64,000 bases of DNA from an uncultured Gemmatimonadales bacterium (GCA_963821525.1 CAWGED010000019.1:652449-716448); one strand, 5' to 3'. Shown: positions 11,381 through 28,085, counted from the first letter of the stretch. Made by a program: numbers and translations. The notes: generated from the sequence alone by a model not told the origin.

Positions 11381-13314
<1,934 letters not shown>

Positions 13315-13318
<4 letters not shown>

Positions 13319-13957
13319 ACAAGGCTTGGTTAGTGATCGCAATAGCCCTGACGATGGCCTGCGCCGGCGCTTCCCACGCCCAGAGCGGCGAAATGAGCGT
13401 CGCCGGGGGCGACCTTCCCCCACCCGGCTACGGCACTCTGAGCCAGGACGACATCTCGATCCGCTTCAACGCGGGAGACATCGATATCCGCATGGTGCCG
13501 CTGGACCAGCGGGTGATGCGGCTGCTGGGCCCCGACGTCTACGCCTCGCTCAACAAGCTCACGATAGACCGCGACGCTTCGATCGATTCTGTGGCCGCGC
13601 TGGGCGGAGCCTCGGATCCTGGATTGATGCTGGTGAGTTTCTTCGGACGACGGGACGGAGTGCGCTTCGAGCCACTCAACGTCTTCCTGGTAATCCGCAA
13701 TCAGACTTACCCAGCCGATCGGCATGGTCCCCTTCACCGCCAGCATCACCAACCGGCAGCTCGACACCCGGCAACAGGCCTCTGCGATCATGGTTTACAA
13801 CACGCCGATTCCGGTTTACGAAAGCTTCGGCGTCGCCTACGGCGTCATCGTGGTGCCAGGCGCCTGGAGCAACCAGCTCTCCAAGGTGCAACGGGAACGC
13901 ACTCGCGTCATGACAAAGGTGAGGCAGGGACAGGTGGATAGCGCGAAGGCGCCGTGA
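13315..13957 (+). CDS. hypothetical secreted protein, probable frame break near 13710
   Basis: The ATG at 13315 overlaps the previous stop (ATGA). Signal peptide [22 protein letters not shown]. The plausible sequence continues in the +1 frame from about 13712 ([18 protein letters not shown]...), next to a CCC run. Confidence 0.5.
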
Positions 13958-14185
13958 GGAAAGCGGGGAACGGGAACAGGGAACGGGGGGGAAAGGTTAC
14001 GAGCTACACCAGCACCTCATCCCGAGAGCCTGCCCCGAGCGCAGCGAGGGGAGCGTAGCGACGAGGGACCTACTAACCGAGCCATTGCGCATTGGCCAGG
14101 ACAGTAGGTCCCTCGCTGCGCTCGGGATGAGGTGCTCCTAATACTTGTCCGGTCTCCCTTTTCCCCCTCAGTCCTCGGTCCTTTC
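13958..14185. repeat. heptamer-arm junction element E3 (GGGAACA type) with inner conserved-core hairpin
   Basis: Outer arms GGAAAGCGGGGAACGGGAACAGGGAACGGGGGGGAAAGG and CCGGTCTCCCTTTTCCCCCTCAGTCCTCGGTCCTTTC. The inner right arm is GTAGGTCCCTCGCTGCGCTCGGGATGAGGTG (14104-14134). Its complement lies at 14013-14073, interrupted by internal duplications. Confidence 0.8.
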
Positions 14186-15159
14186 AACTTCTCGCTGAGG
14201 TTCCCCACCACCTCTCCACTCCCTCGAACGTCCTCCCCGCCACCAGCATCGCCGTCGACAGCACGTCCGCCTCGATTCCGCTGCGAGCCTCGACACTCAC
14301 CTGCACCATGCGATCCGCGGGATAACCGGTCGCAGGATCCATCACGTGGCCGCGGACTACGGCACCGTAGCGAATCACCGACATCGTGTTGGCGCTGGTC
14401 GCGAGCGCGCGGTCCCGCAGGACACCGGCGGGCCGGGAAGCCCCTGAGCCGGTCGGATCGGCCAGATCCACCCGCCAGCCTTCCTGACCCGGCGGCGCGC
14501 CCAACGCGATGCAATCACCGCTCACATCGATGAAGGCTCGCTCGACTCCGCGGGCCCGTAGCACACTCGCCGCCCGGTCCAGACCATAGCCCACTCCGAT
14601 CCCGCCGAGGTCGAGCTGAGTCACGGCGGAGGGAAGTGTCACTCGGTCTCCATCGATCAGCATCACACTGGCTCGTACCGCCTTCTCCGCTTCCCGGAGC
14701 TCCATCGCGCCGGGCGGCGCTTTCCTCGGCTCACGGAAACCCCAGACCCGCATCAACGGCTCGACTCGCGATATTGAATGCCCCGCCCGTCGAGCGTCGA
14801 GCACGAGCCGCGGCGCTGAGCACCTCGAGCAGGTCCCCATCCACCTTCATCGCCGACTTCCCGGCGTGACGGTTCATCTCGGAGAGGTCGCTCGCGTCAT
14901 CGAACCGGGAGAGCCGGCCTTCGACGCGACGCAGCTCCGCCAGGGCCAGAGCGGCGGCTTCAAGGCCGGCAGCCTCGGACTCGTGGAAGAGCATCAGGTG
15001 AACCGGCTGTCCCATGGCCCAGGACCAGCGTTCTACCAGGCGGGAAGGCGGGGAGGCGGGAAGGCGGGAAGAAGCGCTCATCAGACCGGCCGACCGACCG
15101 CCTGACTGACCGACCGCCATCACCGCCCCCAGCATCGACACGAAGTCCCGGCGGTTCAC
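14184..15159 (-). pseudogene. apbE: FAD:protein FMN transferase (ApbE), frame-disrupted as sequenced near 14765-14770
   Basis: The N-terminal frame (14731..15159) has a Tat-like MNRRDFVSMLGAVMAV and ends ...TGGAFNI. The C-terminal frame (14184..14840) continues VEPLMRVWGF...DLGGIGVGYG. One extra base separates the frames. GTGA overlap with the upstream gene. Confidence 0.8.
15039..15070. repeat. octanucleotide tandem array GGCGGGAA x4 inside apbE
   Basis: GGCGGGAA GGCGGGGA GGCGGGAA GGCGGGAA. It encodes SRLPASPPSR just after the signal peptide on the minus strand. Confidence 0.8.
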
Positions 15160-15662
15160 TTCTGTTCCACCAGGTGGAGTTCGGTGAGAATCAGCCAGCT
15201 CTGCAGGTAGAAGGTGATCGCCATGGCCGTGCTGGAGAGCTCCAGCAGCCAGCTGAACCGCGGATCAACGTAGCGTACCAGCCAAAGCGAGCTGAACGAC
15301 ACCAGCAGGGCCACGAATGGCTCGACGATCAGAAAGCGCCTCAAACGGGGCGAGAGCCGGGAGCAGAGAGCTACTCCCAGGCCCGAGAACGCAAAAATCA
15401 CCGCCATGCTCAGAATGTGCGTGTGGGTCAACGTGAGCATCTCGGCGTACGACTTGGCAAACTGCATCGCCCCTTCGGCCGCGGTACTGTCGGACCCGCG
15501 GTACCGGTCGCTGATCCCCGAGGGCGCCATGTGGGTCGTGTGCAGGACGAAAAGCAGGGCCGTGGTGTAGCCCACCACCTGAACGATGGTGAGCCACCGG
15601 GCCACGCTGCGGAATGGCGGTGGGACATCGCGCCAGAGATACTCGATGTTCCTGGAATTCAT
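15156..15662 (-). CDS. small polytopic membrane protein with paired His motifs (unknown family)
   Basis: The ATG at 15662 overlaps the upstream stop (ATGA). About four hydrophobic helices. HTTHMAP and THTHIL motifs lie at helix ends. Confidence 0.6.
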   Translation of the reverse strand: MNSRNIEYLWRDVPPPFRSVARWLTIVQVVGYTTALLFVLHTTHMAPSGISDRYRGSDSTAAEGAMQFAKSYAEMLTLTHTHILSMAVIFAFSGLGVALCSRLSPRLRRFLIVEPFVALLVSFSSLWLVRYVDPRFSWLLELSSTAMAITFYLQSWLILTELHLVEQK

Positions 15663-16141
15663 TGGAGTTTGCCCGCCGCGTGCCACGCGGTGAGATCGGC
15701 GACCGCCTTGCGGACGGCCAGGGTGACGGAATTCACGCTGATCGTTGCTCCCGAGATGGACCGAATGTCCTTCCCGACTTCCATGGGATCCTGCGCCGTC
15801 TTCCCCCGGAATTGCTTGCGCCACGAGTCGTACGCCACCTCGCCGCCGTAGGGCTCGCGGTAGACCAGGATATCAACGTCCTTCAGGTGATCACCCGGAT
15901 CCACCGCGACCAGAAACGTGATGGGCTGGTCCTTCCCCTTCACATTCCGCACGACGGCATACCCCAGCAACGAATCGGCCCGCTCGACCCGAAGCACCGG
16001 CGCATCATCCACCTTGACGGTGTCGGCGCGGGCTCCATCCCCGAACACCCGGGCGAGACTCGCCTGGAGCTTCTTGGCGGGGGCGTCCTGAGCGGTGAGA
16101 GGTGAGAAGTGAGACGTGAGAAGGACAAGACTCACCGCCAC
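15659..16141 (-). CDS. FMN-binding domain protein (periplasmic, flavinylation target type)
   Basis: The C-terminal IRSISGATISVNSV matches the FMN_bind S-G-A-T flavinylation motif seen in NqrC/RnfG-type proteins. GTG start. The first codons lie inside repeat E4. Confidence 0.7.
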   Translation of the reverse strand: MAVSLVLLTSHFSPLTAQDAPAKKLQASLARVFGDGARADTVKVDDAPVLRVERADSLLGYAVVRNVKGKDQPITFLVAVDPGDHLKDVDILVYREPYGGEVAYDSWRKQFRGKTAQDPMEVGKDIRSISGATISVNSVTLAVRKAVADLTAWHAAGKLQ

Positions 16142-16232
16142 GAATCGGCGCGCATAGAAGGCGATTCACGGGTTACTCGTCATTGGCGATTCCTCGTGTT
16201 TCCTCTCACCTCTCACGCTCTCACGTCTCACG
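16094..16232. repeat. heptamer-arm junction element E4 (GTGAGAN type)
   Basis: Left arm GGTGAGAGGTGAGAAGTGAGACGTGAGAAGG (16094-16124). Right arm CCTCTCACCTCTCACGCTCTCACGTCTCACG (16202-16232). Four heptamers per arm. Confidence 0.85.
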
Positions 16233-17369
16233 TCAAAACTGGTATCCAACCCCCAGCGCCAACACCTCGTTCTCCCCTGCTCCGGCCTGATTGTCGCGTA
16301 GCTGGTAGTCGGCCTTGAAGGCAACATTCCAGAGCGGCTTGTACGTCAGGCCAAAGGTGGTGATCCGGCGAGCAAGCGTGGCATCGTCCGGCGTGCCGGC
16401 AGCTGCCTTGGCCTGGGTATCGTAGTGATCGTACCGCACAAACGCGTTGAGGCGCTGGCTCGATTTGGGAGCGAGGAGCCCGAGCAGATTGTATCCGCCC
16501 TCGACGTAGCCACCGGCGATCCGTCGGCCGACGCCCTGTCCGTAGACCGCGTTGATCTTGTCGGCGTCGTAGACCTCGATGGTGCCTCCCACCGCGCGCA
16601 GCATGAAGGGCCCGTTGTCCCAGCGGGCGTCACCCATCAGCACCAGAACGGGAGCGTCGAATGCGCCGGTGCCGAGTCCGGGAACCTGGTTGGCCGTGCC
16701 ACCATACCAGAACGAACCGCCGACCTTGAGACCCGCCTGGGCATACTCCACCCGTCCGGTGAACGAAGGATTGGCGAAGCTCGCCTCTTTCCCCTCCTGG
16801 CGTCCCTCACGAATGCCTTGTTCCGCCGTGAACCCCTCGGCCTTGAGCCCATTCACCAGGAAGACCCGGTAACTGAGCCCGTTGACTCCCGGAATCTGGC
16901 CGACGGCGCCGACGCCGATGTCACGCCAAGTGGTGGGAATGACATCGTTGTCGAAGTCGGGCCGCTCGACTCCATTGAAGCTGGGTGGCTCGTGGGTCTC
17001 GTTGATGATGCCGATCGGCGGAAGCAGGAGTCCGGTCCGCAGCGTGAATGCGTTGGAGAAACGGTAATCCAGATACGCCTGCTCGAGTGCAACCTCGCCG
17101 CCCGATTCTCCGCCTTCGATCTTGGTGTCCTCCAACTCCAGCTCGGAGTGCAGGGTGATCCGCTCGTTGAACGCGTAGCCGGCGTAGATCACGAATCGCT
17201 TCACGTTCACCAAGCCGGGTGTGTCGGGCCCGGTGGAGTTGGAGTAGTGGACCTCCCCGTACCCGCCGATGGTGAGTTTGCCGGCTTCGTCCTGCGCGGA
17301 GAGCTGGGCAACGGGGAGTAGACACAGGCCAACCGCCCCGATGCGGACAATCAAGTTCATGAGTGACAA
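16233..17369 (-). CDS. outer-membrane porin-like beta-barrel protein
   Basis: Signal peptide MSLMNLIVRIGAVGLCLLPVAQLSAQ. Alternating beta-strand pattern. C-terminal ...VLALGVGYQF ends in an aromatic residue. Confidence 0.7.
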   Translation of the reverse strand: MSLMNLIVRIGAVGLCLLPVAQLSAQDEAGKLTIGGYGEVHYSNSTGPDTPGLVNVKRFVIYAGYAFNERITLHSELELEDTKIEGGESGGEVALEQAYLDYRFSNAFTLRTGLLLPPIGIINETHEPPSFNGVERPDFDNDVIPTTWRDIGVGAVGQIPGVNGLSYRVFLVNGLKAEGFTAEQGIREGRQEGKEASFANPSFTGRVEYAQAGLKVGGSFWYGGTANQVPGLGTGAFDAPVLVLMGDARWDNGPFMLRAVGGTIEVYDADKINAVYGQGVGRRIAGGYVEGGYNLLGLLAPKSSQRLNAFVRYDHYDTQAKAAAGTPDDATLARRITTFGLTYKPLWNVAFKADYQLRDNQAGAGENEVLALGVGYQF

Positions 17370-17383
17370 GGGGAAAGATTAGT

Positions 17384-17398
17384 TGAGAATGATTATCA
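17384..17398 (-). promoter_or_regulatory. candidate Fur box (7-1-7 type)
   Basis: The reverse complement TGATAATCATTCTCA matches TGATAATnATTATCA at 13 of 14 specified positions. It lies 15-29 nt upstream of the porin start, in a locally AT-rich leader within a GC-rich genome. Confidence 0.5.
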
Positions 17399-17522
17399 GA
17401 TAGAACTCTGACTAGTTTAGTCCCCTTTTGCGAGTTCGTCAACCAGATTTCCCCTTAGTACCACGGTTCACGTTTCCTCGGACAGGCCGAACCGCTAGAC
17501 TCTGTTGAATCCCGGAGGATGT

Positions 17523-18374
17523 ATGGCCTACCTGCCCCTGCGCGGAGTCGAACTCGCGGCCCCCGCCGCCCGCGTGTACGACGAATGGCTTGCCGCACTC
17601 GACGCCGATCTGTCTGCGCCCGGCGCCGACTGGTACCGGATCGCTCGGGACGTGCTGTTCGAGATCTGGTATCCCGGCCATTCGGACTACGACGGCATGG
17701 TCGCCGATGCGAAGCTCCCTGCAGCGAGCCGCATCGCGCTGCTCGGCCTGGATCCGCACAACATCACGCTCGAGCCCGAGTACTACGGCGATGTTGACGC
17801 GCCGCGCTTTGCCCGGGTGAAACCGCTGCTTTGGCTTTGGTACTCCTTCGATCGCTCTCCGCTGGGAGGACAGCACGTCTATCTCGGCCTCCGGTTCCGC
17901 CGCCTCCTGGCGCCTCGGATTTTTGCCCGCTGCGGAGAGAACTTCAAATGCTTCCAGCACGTCGAGTTCTCCTATGGATACAGCCTGGAGGTGGGGGACA
18001 ACGTGGTGGTTCACCGTCACGTGCTGCTGGACGACCGCGGTGGGCTCACCCTGGGCAACCGGGTCAGCATCTCGGATTACGCCAACATCTACAGTCACAC
18101 CCACAGCATCGTGGAGCAGCGCGAAGTGACTAACGCCCCCACCGTGATCGAGGACGACGTGCGCATCACCTACCACGCCACGGTGCTGGCGGGAGTCCGG
18201 GTGAAGGCCAACGCCATGGTGGGCGCCATGGCCCTCGCCACCAAGGACGTCAGGTCCTATCACGTGAACGTCGGGATTCCCGCCAAATCGGTTCGGGTCA
18301 AGCCGAATGCACCACCAGAGGCGTATGTGACCGAACGGGTTGGGGGCCGGCATCCCGGGGAGCCACCTCGCTGA
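17523..18374 (+). CDS. hexapeptide-repeat (left-handed beta-helix) acyl/acetyltransferase
   Basis: The C-terminal half has repeated [LIV]-G-x4 hexapeptides (LEVGDNVVVHRHVLLDDRGGLTLGNRVSISDYANI...VIEDDVRITYHATVLAGVRVKANAMVGAMA). The ATG at 17523 gives MAYLPL. Confidence 0.75.
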   Translation: MAYLPLRGVELAAPAARVYDEWLAALDADLSAPGADWYRIARDVLFEIWYPGHSDYDGMVADAKLPAASRIALLGLDPHNITLEPEYYGDVDAPRFARVKPLLWLWYSFDRSPLGGQHVYLGLRFRRLLAPRIFARCGENFKCFQHVEFSYGYSLEVGDNVVVHRHVLLDDRGGLTLGNRVSISDYANIYSHTHSIVEQREVTNAPTVIEDDVRITYHATVLAGVRVKANAMVGAMALATKDVRSYHVNVGIPAKSVRVKPNAPPEAYVTERVGGRHPGEPPR

Positions 18375-18433: not shown

Positions 18434-20455
18434 GTGCGATCGCGCCGGCGTTCCTTGGCACTGGAGCAGGACCGGAGCCAGCTCGCCCTCCAGCTCGACC
18501 GCCGCATCAACGAGATCTTCTCGCTTCAGGAATTGAGCTACGTGCTGGCCGAGTCGCTCCAGCTCGAGCGAGTGGCCGAGCAGGTGGTGCGCTACACCAT
18601 GCGGTTCCTCCAGGCCGACGGTGCCATCGTGATCCTGGCGGCGGAGGATGGCAGCAGCCTGATGGTGGCCGGCGCCGAGGGTTCGTTATCCGCTCTCAGT
18701 GGCCAACGACTCGCCGCCGATGACGCGACACTGGTGATGCGGGCGCTGCAGAACGAGCGGATCGAAGTCGAGCAGGATGTCTCGGGAGAGGGTGTCCTCC
18801 TGATCGGCGATGCCAGGGCCCAAATCGCCGCGGCCGCTCCGCTCCGCGCCCATGGATTTGCGATGGGCGCTCTCGCGGTGGCGGGCCACCGTTCGGGCAG
18901 CTTCGGCCCCGAGGATCTCTGGCTCCTGTCTACTGTGGCGACGCATGTCGCCGTGGTGATGGCCAACAGCCGGCTCTTCGAAATGGTGCGGCAGGCGAAA
19001 GAGGAGTGGGAAACCGCGTTCAACTCACTCGCCGAAGGCATCGCCGTGGTTGATGAGAAGGGCCGGATCAGTCGCGCCAATCGTGCCTTCGCGCGGATGC
19101 TCGATTCCCCTCTCCCTACCCTGATCGGCCGGAACTTCTGGCCGACCGTGGTCGGAGACAGCGAAGGGCCCGGCGATCTCTTCGCCGCCGCGAGCCGGGG
19201 AGAACGACCCTCGCCGGTCATGGTCCGGAGCGAGGTGCTCCACCGGATGCTGCGACTCACCGCGGCTCCACTTTCCGAGCCGCTGGACGGCACGGCGACC
19301 GTCATCCTCATCGAGGATGTGACGGAGCAACGGGCGCTCGAGGCCCAGCTCATTCAGAACGAAAAGCTGGCGGCGGTGGGGCAGCTGGTCTCCGGCGTCG
19401 CCCACGAGCTCAACAACCCGCTCACCTCGATCGCGGGACTGTCGGAGTTCCTGCTCGAGCGAAAAGATCTCCGGGCGAGCGACCGGGAGCACCTGCGGGT
19501 GGTGCACGAGCAGGCCGCGCGTGCCGGACTCATCGTACAGAATCTGCTGACCTTCGCCCGGAAGGAGACGCCCGAGCCGGCCGGGGTGGACTTGAACACC
19601 GTGGTGGAACGCACCGCGTTGCTCGTGGCCTACGACCTCCGGCTCCGCGGCATCGAGCTGGACCAGAAGTTGAGCACCGAAGAGATCAGCGTGAAGGGAA
19701 ACCGCTACGAGCTGCAGCAGGTGCTGCTGAACCTGCTGACCAATGCGACCCACGCGATCTCCAAGCTGCACCCTGACGCGGCGCGCCGAATCACCGTCGA
19801 GACATTGAGGGATGGCACCCAGGCGGTGCTCCGGGTACGGGATACCGGGCCCGGCGTGCCGCAGCAGCTCGTCTCCCAGCTCTTTACCCCGTTCTTCACC
19901 ACCAAGGACCCGGGCGAGGGAACCGGGTTGGGCCTCTCGATCAGTTACGGGATCGTCGAGTCACACGGCGGCCGCCTGAGCTATGCGCCTGCTGTTGGTG
20001 GGGGAGCCGAATTCACCGTCTCACTTCCCCACGTGCCTCATGGGGGAGAAGCGCCGGCGGTTCAGCCCGCGGGCCTCGAAGGGCTGCCTCGGGGGAAGGC
20101 TGGGCGCTCCATTCTCGTCGTGGATTCGGACCGGGCAGTCCATCGCACGGCGGTGGCACTCTTCGGCATGGCTGGTCATCGCGTGGTCAGCGTGCTGACC
20201 GGCGACGAAGCGATGCCGCTCGCGCAGGAAGGGGAGTATGACCTGGTGCTGGCCGATTCTCGCGCGACGATGAAGGGGGAAGGATTCGTGACCCACCTGC
20301 TGGCCGCGCGACCCGGGTGGAAGAGCCGGGTGGTTCTCACCGTCCCGGCCGATACCAGTTCGGTCCAGCTGCAACGCGAGGGATTCAGAGTCGTGGAGCG
20401 GCCGATCACCGTCCGCCAGCTGAGCGCCGCGGCGCAGGCACTGCTCGAGGGCTAG
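18434..20455 (+). CDS. hybrid sensor histidine kinase (GAF-PAS-HisKA-HATPase-receiver)
   Basis: H-box [16 protein letters not shown]1 and G2 boxes ([32 protein letters not shown]). C-terminal receiver-like ILVVDSD...LVLADS. An in-frame hydrophobic helix at 18371-18433 has no canonical start codon. Confidence 0.85.
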
Positions 20456-21927
20456 TAACCCGCCTCCTCAGCCCGGCGGAACGGCTGGAGAGTGATCCTG
20501 CCGTGCAGTTTCCGGGCGACCTGATCCGCGCTCGCCACCGCCCAGAAATTCCCGCCCGCGTCGAGCACCGGCGCATCGATGAACCACCGCCGAGCCGAGA
20601 GAAAGACGTTGCCGGTAAGCTGAAGGTCGGTGCTGACCGAATCGATCACGACACCGTCATCCACTCCGTCGAACAGATTGCCCCGGATCCTGATCCGGGT
20701 ACTCCGTTCCACCAGGATCCCCTGCCCCACCTTGGCGATCGTGTTGTCGCCGATCCGATAATCCCGGCTCGGCTCATCGCCATCCTTGGAGGTAAAGAGC
20801 CGGATACCGACCTTGCCGCCGATGATGATGTTGCCGTTCAGCTCGTTCTCGCCCCCGTGCTCGATGGCGATGCCGCCAGTACGGGAGCCCACGACGGAGT
20901 TCTTCTCCACCGTGTTCGCCCGGGAGTATCCCAGCCAGAACCCGTAGTCCGAACTGTCGGCCCGATTCTCCAGGAAGGTGTTCCATTCGCTGAAGGTGGA
21001 CTCGAACGCATTGTGATAGGCGAACGAGGCGTCGTTCCGGATCACGAGATTGCCGATCGAGCCCGAGACCTCCGGTCGCTGGCCACTCAGGAAGAACCCG
21101 TCTCCCGACCAGGTGAGGTCGTTGTCCGCGATGAAATTCGAATCGCTGCGCTGCCGGAGCAGGAGGGCCGCGCTATCGCAGCCGTGGCGATAGCCGGGAC
21201 TCTCGCAGCGCACGTTGTGATCCGCCTTGTTACGGAGAATGGTATTGCGCGATGAACGCCAGAGATGGATTCCCCAACCCGAGTTGCCGCTGACATCGTT
21301 GTCGGCGATGATCGCGTTCCGGCTCTCGAACAACCCGATGCCGTTCTGCGCCCCACGCGCGATAACCCCGGTTACCGAGGCGCCGCTGGTTCGCTTGAGA
21401 TAGACGCCGTGGCCGTAGGTCTCAAACGTGTCGGGATGGAAGATGTCGAGCCAGTCGGCCTGATCGTAACGCTGCGGAGTCGAGCGCAACGTCTGGCTTC
21501 TCGATTGGGAGACATCCACCCCGCTGATCCGGTGTCCGCTTCCTCCATCGAGCTTGATGCCGTAGCGGTACCCCCGGATCCGGCCTCCGCGAACCGCGAC
21601 ACTGTCGACACCCGTGCTGGTGATTCCGATTCCTCGAAAGTCTGCCGGAACCGAGTCTCCGCTTTCGAGCGTGACACCGGTGAGGTCGATCCTGGTTCCC
21701 GGAGCAGAGGCGACGATGATGCCGCGCTCGTTGGGATCCGGGATGCGATAGCGGCCGGGACAGATCTTCACGTCCCCGCTCACTTGGGTACCCGGTTTCT
21801 GCAGTCGGGTGCAGGCGACGGCGTGAACCGGGAACGGGGAACGGGGAACAGGGGATCCCGTTGACTCGATAGGACCGATCGAGAGGGACAGCAGCAGGAC
21901 TGTTGCGATGGCTAGACGAATCATCAT
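20452..21927 (-). CDS. secreted right-handed parallel beta-helix repeat (PbH1/NosD-like) protein
   Basis: The ATG at 21927 overlaps the corrected hisF stop (ATGA). Signal peptide [18 protein letters not shown]. Repeated motifs follow (...N.I..N....G..GI.L...). In the ORF track it is fused to hisF only through read-through. Confidence 0.75.
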
Positions 21928-22698
21928 GGTCTCACAACATAGCCCCGCTCCCGCAGGTAGGCTCGCGCCTCGGGAAGAGAGGAACCTTGATAGTGGAAAA
22001 TCGATGCGGCCAGAACTCCATGAGCCCCGGCCTCGAACGCCTCGGCGAGATGCGCCAGGCTTCCCGGCACCGCCCGACGCAATGACCGGAATGCTCACCC
22101 GGCGCGTAGTCTCTCGCAGCAGGTCGAGATCATAGCCTGAGCGGGTGCCGTCCCGGTCCATCGAGGTCAGCAGAATCTCGCCCGCCCCCAACTGCTCCAG
22201 CCTGACCATCCATTCGAGACCGTCGAGCCCGGTTGGCTCGCGTCCTCCATTCACGTACACCGCCCAGCTCATCGGGTTGCCGTCTGTCGGGGATGGTGTC
22301 CGCTTTGCGTCAACCGCCGCCACGATGCATTGAGCGCCGAAGCTGTCCGAGAGTCGCCGTACCAGCTCGGGATCGCGCGCCGCCGCGGTATTCACCGCGA
22401 TCTTGTCGGCTCCCGCCCGCAATACCGCCCCGGCGTCTTCCAGCGACCGGATCCCGCCCCCCACGGTGAAGGGGATGAGGAGCCTCTCCGCCACGCGAGC
22501 GACCATGTCGAGCGTGGTCGCCCGGGACTCGTTGCTGGCGGAGATATCGAGTAACACCAGCTCATCCGCCCCTTCGGCGTCATACCGCGCGGCCTGTTCG
22601 ACCGGATCACCGGCATCCCGGAGCGACTCGAAATGCACCCCTTTGACCACCCGTCCACCGGCGACGTCGAGACAGGGGATGATTCGACGGGCTAGCAT
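21924..22698 (-). pseudogene. hisF: imidazole glycerol phosphate synthase cyclase subunit HisF, frame-disrupted as sequenced near 22060-22063
   Basis: [23 protein letters not shown]...[10 protein letters not shown], then the frame is lost. Removing one A restores [45 protein letters not shown] and a stop at 21924. Confidence 0.88.
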
Positions 22699-25823: not shown

Positions 25824-28085
25824 CTACTCCTTCCTCCTCGCCAGCACCACCTCCAGCCGTTTCGAAAGCGCCTTGGCTCGGAAGGGCTTGGTGAGGAAAT
25901 CGTCGGCGCCCAGCTCGAAGACCCGGACTTCGTTGTCCTCGTCGCCTTTGGCGGTGAGAACGATGACTGGGGTCTTCCTGGTGGCGGGACGGGAGCGGAG
26001 CTGTGAAAGCACCGAGTATCCGTCCATGTCCGGCAGGTTCAAGTCGAGCACGACCACATCGGGGGCGTGGCGGTCCACCTGGTCCAGCGCCTCGACCCCA
26101 TTTCTTGCCTCGAGGACCGCGTATCCCTCGCGGGCCAGCAGATCCTTCATGACCCGACGCAGCGAATCCTCGTCGTCCACCAGGAGGACCGATGCTCCGT
26201 GGACCGGCCGGACGACTTCGACGCTCGCGGCCTCATCGTCAATCAGGTCGAAGGCGGTCGTGAGATCGGCGACCGGAATATTGACCGCGGGGACGGGACC
26301 CGAGGGCGTGCCGTGGTGGGGACCGGGTGTGCTGCGCTTGGACGGAAGCGGCGTGTTGACGCTTGGCGTCGCCGGGCGGCCGGTGCTGCGCTCGTCCATC
26401 GGAACGTCCACCACGCGAAGCAGCTCCTCTACGCTGGTTTCGCCGCTCAATACATGTTGCACACCGCTTTCGAACAGCGACTTCATCCCGTTGGCCCTGG
26501 CGGCTTCGGCGATCTTGTCCGCCTGACCGCCCGCTCCGATCCTCCGCTCCAGCTCGGCGTTCATCGTAAGAATCTCGACCACCGAGAATCGCCCGCGGTA
26601 CCCGGTCATGGCGCAATCGGGGCAGCCGACGGCCCGATAGAGCGTCGTGCCCGGCGGGATGTAGCGCCGGATCCGGGTCGGGATATCTCCGTCGTTGACC
26701 TCGCGACAGCGGGGACAGATCCGCCGCATGAGGCGCTGGGCGATCACCCCGCGGAGGGCCGGGCCGATCTTGTACGGCTCCATCCCCATGTCCACCAGAC
26801 GGGTGATGGCGTTGGGTGCGTCGTTGGTGTGCAGGGTCGAGAGCACCAGGTGGCCGGTCAGCGAGGCCTGCAGCGCGATCTGCGCCGTCTCCCGGTCGCG
26901 CACCTCACCCACCAGCACCACGTCGGGGTCCTGGCGGAGGATCGACCGGAGTGCCGCCGAGAAGGTGAGTCCCGCCTTCTCGTGCACCTGCACCTGGACG
27001 ATGCCCTTGCCCAAGCGGTATTCGACCGGGTCCTCGACGGTGACGATGTTGACGCCGTCGCTCTGAACCATGCGCAGCGCGGAGTAGAGCGTCGTGGTCT
27101 TGCCCGAGCCGGTCGGCCCGGTGACCAGGACGATGCCCTCCTTGTTGTTGAGCAGGTTCTTGATCGCTTCGCGCTCTTCCTCGCTCATGCCGAGCGAATC
27201 GAGCGAGAGCACCGTGGCCTTGGCGTTGAGAATCCGGATGACGACCTTCTCGCCGAGGGAGGCGGGGAGGGTCGAGACCCGCAGGTCCACGGGGGAGCCG
27301 TTCACCGCGACCCGGGCGCGGCCGTCCTGCGGGCGCAGCCGGTCAGCGATGTCCAGCCCGGACATGATCTTGATGCGCGAGATGAGTGGTGCGCCCGCGG
27401 TCCGCGGAATGTTCATGACCTGGCGCAAGACTCCGTCGATCCGGTAGCGAACCGCAACGCCCGCTTCGCCCGGCTCGATGTGAATGTCGCTTGCCCGAGA
27501 CAGGATTCCGTCCGAAAGCATCAGGTCGACCAATCGCACCACCGGCCGCTGACTGGCCTCGTCGGCCGAGGCGCTGAGCTCGGCCAGCCCCTCGTTGTCA
27601 TCCAGCTGGGTGACCTCGAGGCCCTCGTCCATATTCCCCAGCAGCTGGCTCATTACCTCCGAGCTGCCGCGGTAGAGCTCATCCATCTTTTCGGCGATGC
27701 GGGACGGCGAGCACAGGTGCATCCGCACCTCGCGGCCGGTGGCGAAGGCGAGATCCTTTTCCGCGTCGATGTCGTTGGGGTTCGCCGTCGCGATCTCGAG
27801 ATACGAGTCGCTGATGCCGATGGGGATGATGTTGAAGCGACGGACCAGCGGTTCGGGTACCGCTTCGCGCGCTTTCTGATCGACCTGATTCAGGTCCGCG
27901 ACGGGCAGTCGGAACCGTGCAGCGGCGGCCTTCAGGATGTCGTCGTCCTTCGCCTCTTTGCGCTGGACCAGCGTGGTCCAGAGCGAGACCGGCTCCTTGC
28001 CTGGTGCCTCGCGCAAACTATCGAGGACCCCGGGCTTCAGAATCTTCTCCAGGCTGGGGACGAGCCACTCATCCGTAAACTGCAT
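25824..28085 (-). CDS. GspE/PilB-family secretion ATPase with C-terminal response-regulator receiver domain
   Basis: T2SSE N-terminal domain. Walker A VTGPTGSGKTTT. Tetracysteine CPRC...CPDC. A Pro-rich linker is followed by LLVDDEDSLR...VVLDLNLPDMDG...TAKGD...KPF (REC). Confidence 0.88.
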   Translation of the reverse strand: MQFTDEWLVPSLEKILKPGVLDSLREAPGKEPVSLWTTLVQRKEAKDDDILKAAAARFRLPVADLNQVDQKAREAVPEPLVRRFNIIPIGISDSYLEIATANPNDIDAEKDLAFATGREVRMHLCSPSRIAEKMDELYRGSSEVMSQLLGNMDEGLEVTQLDDNEGLAELSASADEASQRPVVRLVDLMLSDGILSRASDIHIEPGEAGVAVRYRIDGVLRQVMNIPRTAGAPLISRIKIMSGLDIADRLRPQDGRARVAVNGSPVDLRVSTLPASLGEKVVIRILNAKATVLSLDSLGMSEEEREAIKNLLNNKEGIVLVTGPTGSGKTTTLYSALRMVQSDGVNIVTVEDPVEYRLGKGIVQVQVHEKAGLTFSAALRSILRQDPDVVLVGEVRDRETAQIALQASLTGHLVLSTLHTNDAPNAITRLVDMGMEPYKIGPALRGVIAQRLMRRICPRCREVNDGDIPTRIRRYIPPGTTLYRAVGCPDCAMTGYRGRFSVVEILTMNAELERRIGAGGQADKIAEAARANGMKSLFESGVQHVLSGETSVEELLRVVDVPMDERSTGRPATPSVNTPLPSKRSTPGPHHGTPSGPVPAVNIPVADLTTAFDLIDDEAASVEVVRPVHGASVLLVDDEDSLRRVMKDLLAREGYAVLEARNGVEALDQVDRHAPDVVVLDLNLPDMDGYSVLSQLRSRPATRKTPVIVLTAKGDEDNEVRVFELGADDFLTKPFRAKALSKRLEVVLARRKE

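Follow-up and report, generated by a model that had tools for sequence, protein, structure and literature searches.

A porin, flavoprotein, membrane protein and ApbE operon in Gemmatimonadales

The 64,000-nucleotide stretch of DNA analysed here (the window) comes from an uncultured soil bacterium of the order Gemmatimonadales (GCA_963821525.1, CAWGED010000019.1:652449-716448). Its G+C content is 64%, and the source order fits the names carried by its closest homologs. The window harbors four consecutive minus-strand genes, encoding an outer-membrane porin, a secreted flavin mononucleotide (FMN)-binding protein of the FMN_bind family, a small four-helix inner-membrane protein and an ApbE flavin transferase, preceded by a promoter and a predicted operator of the Fur family. 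The features of this locus, in the direction of transcription, are as follows.

17414-17442, minus strand: sigma-70-like promoter TTGACG-N17-TAAACT, recognised in the sequence; TTGAC(A)-N17-TAnAnT is kept at the same distance from the box in orthologs
17384-17398, no strand assigned: predicted Fur-family operator TGAGAATGATTATCA (coding-strand sequence TGATAATCATTCTCA), with the -10 element about 15 nt upstream
17376-17383, minus strand: conserved box extension ACTAATCT (ortholog consensus ACTAGTcT)
16233-17360, minus strand: outer-membrane 16-strand porin, 375 aa, with signal peptide (Pfam, AlphaFold2 (AF2) model, Foldseek and orthologs)
16089-16234, minus strand: intercistronic hairpin between (GTGAGAN)n, which follows the porin stop, and (NTCTCAC)n in the FMN_bind signal-peptide codons
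15659-16141, minus strand: secreted FMN_bind protein, 160 aa, putative ApbE substrate (Pfam FMN_bind, PF04205, 1.1e-9)
15743-15754, minus strand: flavinylation motif SGAT, residues 130-133 of the FMN_bind protein
15156-15662, minus strand: four-helix inner-membrane protein, 168 aa, PF27139 (Aq_1264_TM; family annotation on homologs, AF2 model)
15417-15428, minus strand: THTH codons, with the invariant H80-x-H82 at the predicted periplasmic end of helix 2
14184-15159, minus strand: ApbE, a flavin adenine dinucleotide (FAD):protein FMN transferase (PF02424), in two Pfam fragments covering profile positions 1-81 and 76-248

A first-pass annotation, made from the sequence alone, had proposed the same four minus-strand genes, and open reading frame (ORF) calls together with Pfam and NCBIfam matches bore this out. 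The tight coupling that it described is also present: the FMN_bind stop and the membrane-protein start share an ATGA (15659-15662), the membrane-protein stop and the ApbE start share a GTGA (15156-15159), and the repeat that it labelled E4, in the spacer between the porin and FMN_bind genes, consists of GTGAGAN heptads. Co-occurrence of the four families extends well beyond the window, with the same gene order in every Gemmatimonadales locus that lies on a long enough contig (approximately 80 species genomes).

A conserved Fur-type operator downstream of the porin promoter

The porin leader is markedly AT-rich, as had been noted, with a G+C content of 39.5% against 64.4% in the operon. The box reported within it at 17384-17398 was confirmed: TGAGAATGATTATCA agrees with the Fur consensus TGATAATNATTATCA at 13 of 14 positions. 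Its placement 15-29 nt upstream of the porin start had to be revised to 24-38 nt, counted from the ATG at 17360. This codon lies three codons downstream of the TTG (17369) that opens the predicted ORF (16233-17369), and is the likelier start because the 375-aa orthologs begin there. The box is the sole match to TGATAATNATTATCA with three or fewer mismatches in the 64-kb window, and none of 100 dinucleotide shuffles yielded a match with one mismatch or fewer; the shuffles and the window scan exclude a chance origin.

We examined conservation of the box in 80 Gemmatimonadales species genomes carrying a relative of the membrane protein, which provided 71 usable porin leaders, and accepted as boxes sites with up to four mismatches to TGAGAATNATTCTCA. 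Sixty-three of the 71 leaders contain the box, with consensus TGA[A/T/G]AA[T/C]CATTCTCA. Directly 3' of it, the sequence ACTAGTcT is conserved even though it was not used for site selection, with motif positions 15-22 carrying 0.6-1.7 bits except for one variable position at 0.4 bits. A TTGACA-N17-TAnAnT promoter is found at a fixed distance 5' of the box, which falls some 12-15 nt downstream of the conserved -10 element, a position at which a bound repressor could block transcription. The upstream neighbor, a hexapeptide acetyltransferase gene, adjoins the operon in 32 of 69 loci only and the box is conserved regardless. This indicates that the box belongs to the porin operon, since the neighbor changes between loci while the box stays. 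The divergent acetyltransferase gene of the window (17505-18374) was rejected as a member of the regulon on the same count. In approximately 1 Mb of fetched flanking Gemmatimonadales DNA the motif is practically confined to the porin leader; with hardly another strong copy in these loci or in the window, no regulon could be derived from them.

The Gemmatimonadales consensus equals a Fur box variant published in other phyla. In Enterococcus faecalis, Fur controls the ycl (iron ABC transporter), feoAB and fhu genes, upstream of which lie the boxes TGAGAATGATTCTCA, TGAGAACGATTCTCA and TGATAACGATTCTCA, all of the variant TGAGAAT-N-ATTCTCA (PMC6056675); in Xanthomonas campestris, where Fur regulates TonB receptors, the Fur consensus is AATGAgAATcATTctCATT (PMC1790865). 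The Fur box predicted by published comparative genomics for the delta-proteobacteria is WTGAAAATNATTTTCAW, of the form TGAAAAT-N-ATTTTCA. As in E. faecalis and X. campestris, the Gemmatimonadales site is a 7-1-7 palindrome with the half-site ATTCTCA at the promoter of envelope uptake genes. It differs from those boxes in its degenerate left half-site (TGA[A/T/G]AA[T/C]), in its ACTAGT extension on the 3' side and in that it follows the -10 element instead of covering it. The boxes of E. faecalis and X. campestris have an experimental basis as Fur boxes, whereas that of the Gemmatimonadota is a predicted one. Literature searches for a Fur motif in Gemmatimonas or the Gemmatimonadota, and for a described iron-regulated FMN_bind/porin operon, turned up nothing relevant. 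The site would provide the first operator motif, and the operon the first candidate member of a Fur regulon, for this abundant and poorly studied soil phylum.

A secreted flavoprotein translationally coupled to a PF27139 membrane protein

The second gene of the operon encodes a protein with a signal-peptide-like N-terminus and no membrane anchor. The ISGATIS stretch noted in the first-pass annotation is present, its SGAT occupying residues 130-133, and [S/T]GAT is invariant in eight homologs, including some from distant lineages. The n-region of the signal peptide is short in the window protein and devoid of the charge seen in orthologs. Beyond FMN_bind itself, NCBIfam returned weak matches to rnfG and NosR, all far below the family cutoffs. 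The protein shares its domain and flavinylated Thr motif with RnfG, NqrC and the N-terminal domain of NosR, but it is soluble, begins with a signal peptide and has no genes for Rnf, Nqr or Nos partner subunits in its neighborhood.

A NosD-like beta-helix gene two genes away, outside any nos cluster, raised the alternative that FMN_bind and ApbE replace NosR and NosX in a Nos system. This was rejected: the NosR score is far below cutoff, the NosD-like ORF lies next to hisF or is fused with it, and nosZ, nosF, nosY and nosL are all missing from the vicinity.

The small membrane protein encoded by the third gene yielded no Pfam match at E ≤ 0.1, and 55 members of its family searched at E ≤ 5 gave scattered weak matches only, among them a single PepSY_TM_like_2 hit at 0.096. 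PF27139 (Aq_1264_TM) is, however, annotated on all listed homologs, including proteins 89-93% identical to that of the window, which is assigned to the family through them. Clustered at 90%, the family has about 2,800 members, and at 50% identity it falls into about 260 clusters; no paper on PF27139 or aq_1264 was found in the literature. A sequence search of the PDB with a profile of the 55 sequences detected no relative. The AF2 model is a confident four-helix bundle (predicted local distance difference test (pLDDT) 86), for which Foldseek retrieved generic four-helix bundles only (best E 0.6). The first-pass remark that the operon could not be mapped to a named system was nearly right: the membrane protein belongs to a named family, one without an assigned function, and the module is not among the published flavinylation classes.

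The annotation had singled out two histidine motifs, both of which are present, HTTH at residues 41-44 and THTH at 79-82. The former is not conserved (H41 in 14 and H44 in 6 of 55 family members), whereas H80 and H82 of the latter (THxH) are found in 55 of 55 and are the sole invariant histidines of the family. By the positive-inside rule, the N-terminus and the Arg-rich loop 2 are predicted to be cytoplasmic, which would place H80 and H82, along with E74, K70, the Y54-x-G56 loop and W127/R130, on the periplasmic side, in the compartment of the flavoprotein. Ligation of haem, as suggested for the two motifs, is not borne out by this arrangement, which is unlike a classical bis-His haem site. 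A pair of histidines at i and i+2 of the same helix, confined to one face of the membrane, does not fit the two-haem transmembrane design of MsrQ, PepSY and DUF4405 proteins. The pair might bind a metal, hold a single haem between subunits or serve for docking.

A porin fixed in the module and an intercistronic hairpin

The porin scored 25.8 bits against Pfam Porin_O_P (PF07396; cutoff 20.9). Its AF2 model contains 16 strands at a pLDDT of only 63, with poorly modelled loops, and its best structural matches in the PDB are OmpC, OmpF and OmpK36 (Foldseek E ~1e-10, template modelling score ~0.6). Residues invariant across homologs of ~29% identity include E36, E73, E75, E77, E93, the N120-E121-x-H123-E124-P125 loop and D351. 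Invariant charged positions are mostly acidic, R55, R133, R184 and R309 being the only basic ones, although low confidence in the loops limits the assignment of these residues to the lumen. Since the invariant residues are acidic, the pore appears to be cation-selective rather than an Arg/Lys-ladder phosphate or anion porin like OprP and OprO. The porin resembles OprO/OprP (PF07396) and OmpF/OmpC in its weak but above-threshold PF07396 match and in its 16-strand barrel of similar size. It departs from OprO/OprP in carrying an E73/E75/E77 ladder and an N-E-x-H-E-P loop where those have an Arg/Lys ladder, and from both pairs in that its gene is fixed beside a flavoprotein gene. The 'Porin O/P' label accordingly denotes fold only.

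The hairpin at 16089-16234 encloses the FMN_bind start and has a predicted free energy of -73.8 kcal/mol (z -4.5). Its (NTCTCAC)n heptads encode LLTSHxSxLTAQ of the FMN_bind signal peptide, and the heptad repeat is found nowhere else in the window. The heptads are conserved in variable number in the retrieved loci L002-L006 (about ten in L002) and missing from L009. This structure may set the ratio of porin to flavoprotein expression or stabilise the porin mRNA. Neither the leader nor the intercistronic hairpin matched Rfam, and a known RNA such as an FMN riboswitch was ruled out on these grounds.

ApbE and its reading frame

In the window, the ApbE sequence falls into two frames (14731-15159 and 14184-14840), and no single frame contains the full-length domain. 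One additional nucleotide in GCGAG at 14766/14767, absent from three close relatives, accounts for the split, and the gene is intact in L002, L003, L005 and L006. Both halves are 83-91% identical to the intact orthologs and contain no further lesions. Several other ORFs of the window look similarly affected: ClpX and EngB read as one 645-aa ORF (11381-13318), a gene for a small secreted protein (13054-13957; ORF 13330-13941) apparently switches frame near 13700, and HisF appears fused to the NosD-like beta-helix protein (20452-22698). The closest relatives are long-read contigs of metagenome-assembled genomes with similarly broken genes. Given these fused or shifted ORFs and the broken genes of the relatives, the insertion is probably an indel error of the assembly consensus. 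The N-terminus of ApbE, VNRRDFVSMLGAVMAV, was read directly from the sequence and contains a twin-arginine-like NRRDFV; export through the twin-arginine translocation (Tat) pathway is predicted from it.

Two kinds of repeat accompany the gene. An 8-nt tandem repeat, AGGCGGGR, in three to four copies at 15038-15069 falls within the N-terminal linker (SRLPASPPSRL), where slippage would shift the ApbE frame because the repeat length is not a multiple of three. Directly downstream of the gene, 14011-14136 contains nested near-perfect inverted repeats (19 nt at 95%, 17 nt at 100% and 27 nt at 81%) that look like a repetitive extragenic palindromic (REP)-like element or a terminator structure, and a second copy of an 87-nt stretch of this region matches L004 at another place.

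Distribution of the module beyond Gemmatimonadales

A search for related loci with a narrow alignment returned only Gemmatimonadales. Ten contexts from outside the order, mostly from AT-rich lineages and with identities of 29-49%, were sampled for gene neighborhood. In all ten, the PF27139 gene is preceded by an FMN_bind gene, usually overlapping it, and the same barrel family stands beside the pair, down to ~29-33% identity. Nearly everywhere, in these contexts as in the Gemmatimonadales, the FMN_bind gene runs into the start of the membrane-protein gene or ends right beside it. Of the ten contexts, only some (L085, L090 and L092) have an ApbE gene next to the module. As the triad is constant and ApbE adjacency variable, the conserved core of the module consists of the porin, FMN_bind and PF27139 genes.

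Iron-related genes recur around this core. In L093 and L094, the PF27139 gene is coupled translationally to a ferritin gene, behind which lies a gene for a TonB-dependent receptor, and the leader contains two boxes, one of them a perfect AATGAGAATGATTCTCATT in L093. Two boxes are likewise found in the leader of L087, with a TonB-dependent receptor gene downstream; L085 and L086 have a ferritin neighbor, and the leader of L096 contains the box TGAGAGTTGGTCTCA. A gene of the GDT1/UPF0016 family of Mn/Ca transporters lies approximately 500 nt downstream of the module in L095. Before the module of L085 (7330-7360) and L090 (395-425) stands a different palindrome, TTATTT-N9-11-AAATAA, which suggests that the regulator has changed in these two.

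Other neighbors were observed in the same sample. EamA/DMT-family transporter genes adjoin the triad in three AT-rich contexts (L083, 5352-6257; L087, 562-1377; L089, 5329-6261), and the lineages flanked by them have no adjacent ApbE. The riboflavin transporter RibN belongs to the EamA/DMT superfamily, and a part in flavin supply is conceivable for these genes. In one lineage, the porin gene comes directly after a DUF6686 gene (119 aa; L090, 425-784; L091, 5669-6028), which may be an additional member of the operon there.

Relation to known flavinylated systems

Proteins flavinylated by ApbE have been tied to iron reduction and assimilation (PMC8238504; PMC11334425) and are emerging as a major route of extracytoplasmic electron transfer, of which the membrane step is the least understood. 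The operon resembles the flavinylated iron-assimilation systems described by Meheust et al. 2021 (PMC8238504) and Huang et al. 2024 (PMC11334425), such as the PepSY-like/FoxB and the P19/FTR1-associated clusters, in combining a secreted FMN_bind protein bearing [S/T]GA[S/T] with a small membrane partner and with an extracytosolic ApbE encoded alongside. It shares with them genomic links to iron genes and, as for those systems, the role proposed for it is iron reduction and assimilation. It differs in its partner, a PF27139 protein with four helices and one periplasmic HxH in place of a four-His two-haem arrangement, and in the dedicated outer-membrane porin fixed in the module. The membrane protein falls into none of the described flavinylation membrane classes (NapH-like, MsrQ-like, PepSY-like, DsbD, Nqr/Rnf-like and DUF4405), and the words 'porin' and 'Gemmatimon' are absent from the main text of the flavinylation papers compared.

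We class the module as an ApbE-flavinylated extracytosolic electron-transfer system whose membrane component and integral porin are not represented in published classifications. PF27139 offers a seventh, structurally unrelated membrane partner for such systems, a fixed outer-membrane pore becomes part of the module, and the regulatory handle makes its function directly testable by iron limitation.

Proposed function and alternative explanations

We propose that this is an iron-starvation operon whose product, a periplasmic flavin module under Fur repression, acquires iron by reduction, and put the probability of this reading at roughly 0.55. A Fur-family repressor bound to the operator, just downstream of the promoter and transcription start, would hold the operon off, and starvation for metal, most likely iron, would release the repressor and switch the operon on. 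The porin would then form a cation-type 16-strand pore in the outer membrane, admitting Fe(III) species. A Tat-exported ApbE would install FMN on the Thr of SGAT in the soluble periplasmic FMN_bind protein, and translational coupling would supply the four-helix partner at a 1:1 ratio to the flavoprotein, with its invariant His-x-His, together with a Glu, at the periplasmic face. This partner would dock the flavoprotein and tie it to the membrane, either by letting in electrons from quinol or by taking up the product as its acceptor or permease, and the flavin would reduce porin-delivered Fe(III) to Fe(II) for uptake. The case for iron draws on the ferritin and TonB-dependent receptor genes found in or near the operon elsewhere, which point to it independently of the box. 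The iron-responsive envelope flavoprotein module of the first-pass annotation is upheld as far as the conserved box and these neighbors go. Two of the outcomes that it had named as refuting, a box missing from orthologous leaders and four genes that do not occur together in other genomes, were checked for and did not arise. Gene content, conservation throughout the order, the operator and its conservation, the folds and the flavinylation motif are established here; we infer that Fur binds and that iron is what it senses, as well as which way electrons flow, what the module acts on, its ferric reductase activity and the part of the membrane protein, which may be electron entry point, permease or simple anchor.

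Several observations weigh against this proposal. Zur, Mur or another protein of the Fur family could be the binder, and actinobacterial Zur boxes read TGAAAATNATTTTCA. The operon encodes neither a cytoplasmic electron donor nor a dedicated Fe(II) permease, and the membrane protein presents no recognisable redox cofactor site, just two conserved histidines on one helix at one face. Five of the distant contexts (L083, L085, L089, L090 and L092) lack a Fur-type box, a Fur repressor box is an unusual control element for a ferritin gene, and ApbE is frameshifted in the window.

In one rival explanation, the architecture is unchanged but the operator belongs to Zur, Mur/Mn, Nur or PerR. The module would then deal with a different cation, for instance Mn(II) or Zn(II), in uptake or in redox chemistry, and its acidic porin and HxH protein would form the transport path. 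The 7-1-7 boxes of Fur-family members overlap in sequence, the Zur boxes of actinobacteria being TGAAAAT-N-ATTTTCA, an acidic porin lumen suits cations generally, Mur-regulated manganese porins are known (MnoP of Bradyrhizobium), and the GDT1/UPF0016 gene lies near the module in L095. The ferritin and TonB-dependent receptor genes in or beside the operon indicate iron instead, the exact box variant is documented for Fur and not for Zur in Enterococcus and Xanthomonas, and a covalent flavoprotein would have no obvious role with redox-inert zinc; we consider another regulator and metal rather unlikely. Iron could also be the signal and not the substrate. The flavoprotein and its partner would in that case be an iron-sparing electron carrier, replacing a haem or Fe-S periplasmic route under starvation in some respiratory or repair reaction for which the porin supplies the substrate. 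Fur-controlled swaps of flavodoxin for ferredoxin are established, functional redundancy of flavins and cytochromes has been described for ApbE systems, and the Gemmatimonadales operon encodes no iron transporter. No oxidoreductase partner is encoded in any sampled context, however, and the strict coupling to a cation-type porin, with recurrent ferritin and TonB-dependent receptor neighbors, fits acquisition better than sparing, leaving the carrier an unlikely explanation.

It is improbable that the operon is decaying in this genome, with a genuine ApbE frameshift and an FMN_bind protein no longer flavinylated by its cognate enzyme. The one-nucleotide insertion relative to three relatives and the FMN_bind N-terminus, without the charged n-region of its orthologs, speak for decay, but the otherwise undamaged ApbE halves argue against it, and the fused and shifted ORFs elsewhere in the window and the broken genes of the long-read relatives point to consensus indel errors.

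A further suggestion is tentative and may well prove wrong, namely that the triad constitutes an undescribed, cytochrome-free pathway of reductive metal uptake across both membranes, in which the acidic porin admits the metal and the covalent flavoprotein reduces it. The HxH protein would then represent a new class of membrane component, either an entry point from quinol to flavin built without the two-haem design or an Fe(II) permease taking the product directly from the flavoprotein.

Apart from the operon, the window encodes a type II/IV secretion ATPase (25824-28085; T2SSE and MshEN domains) with a C-terminal response-regulator receiver domain.

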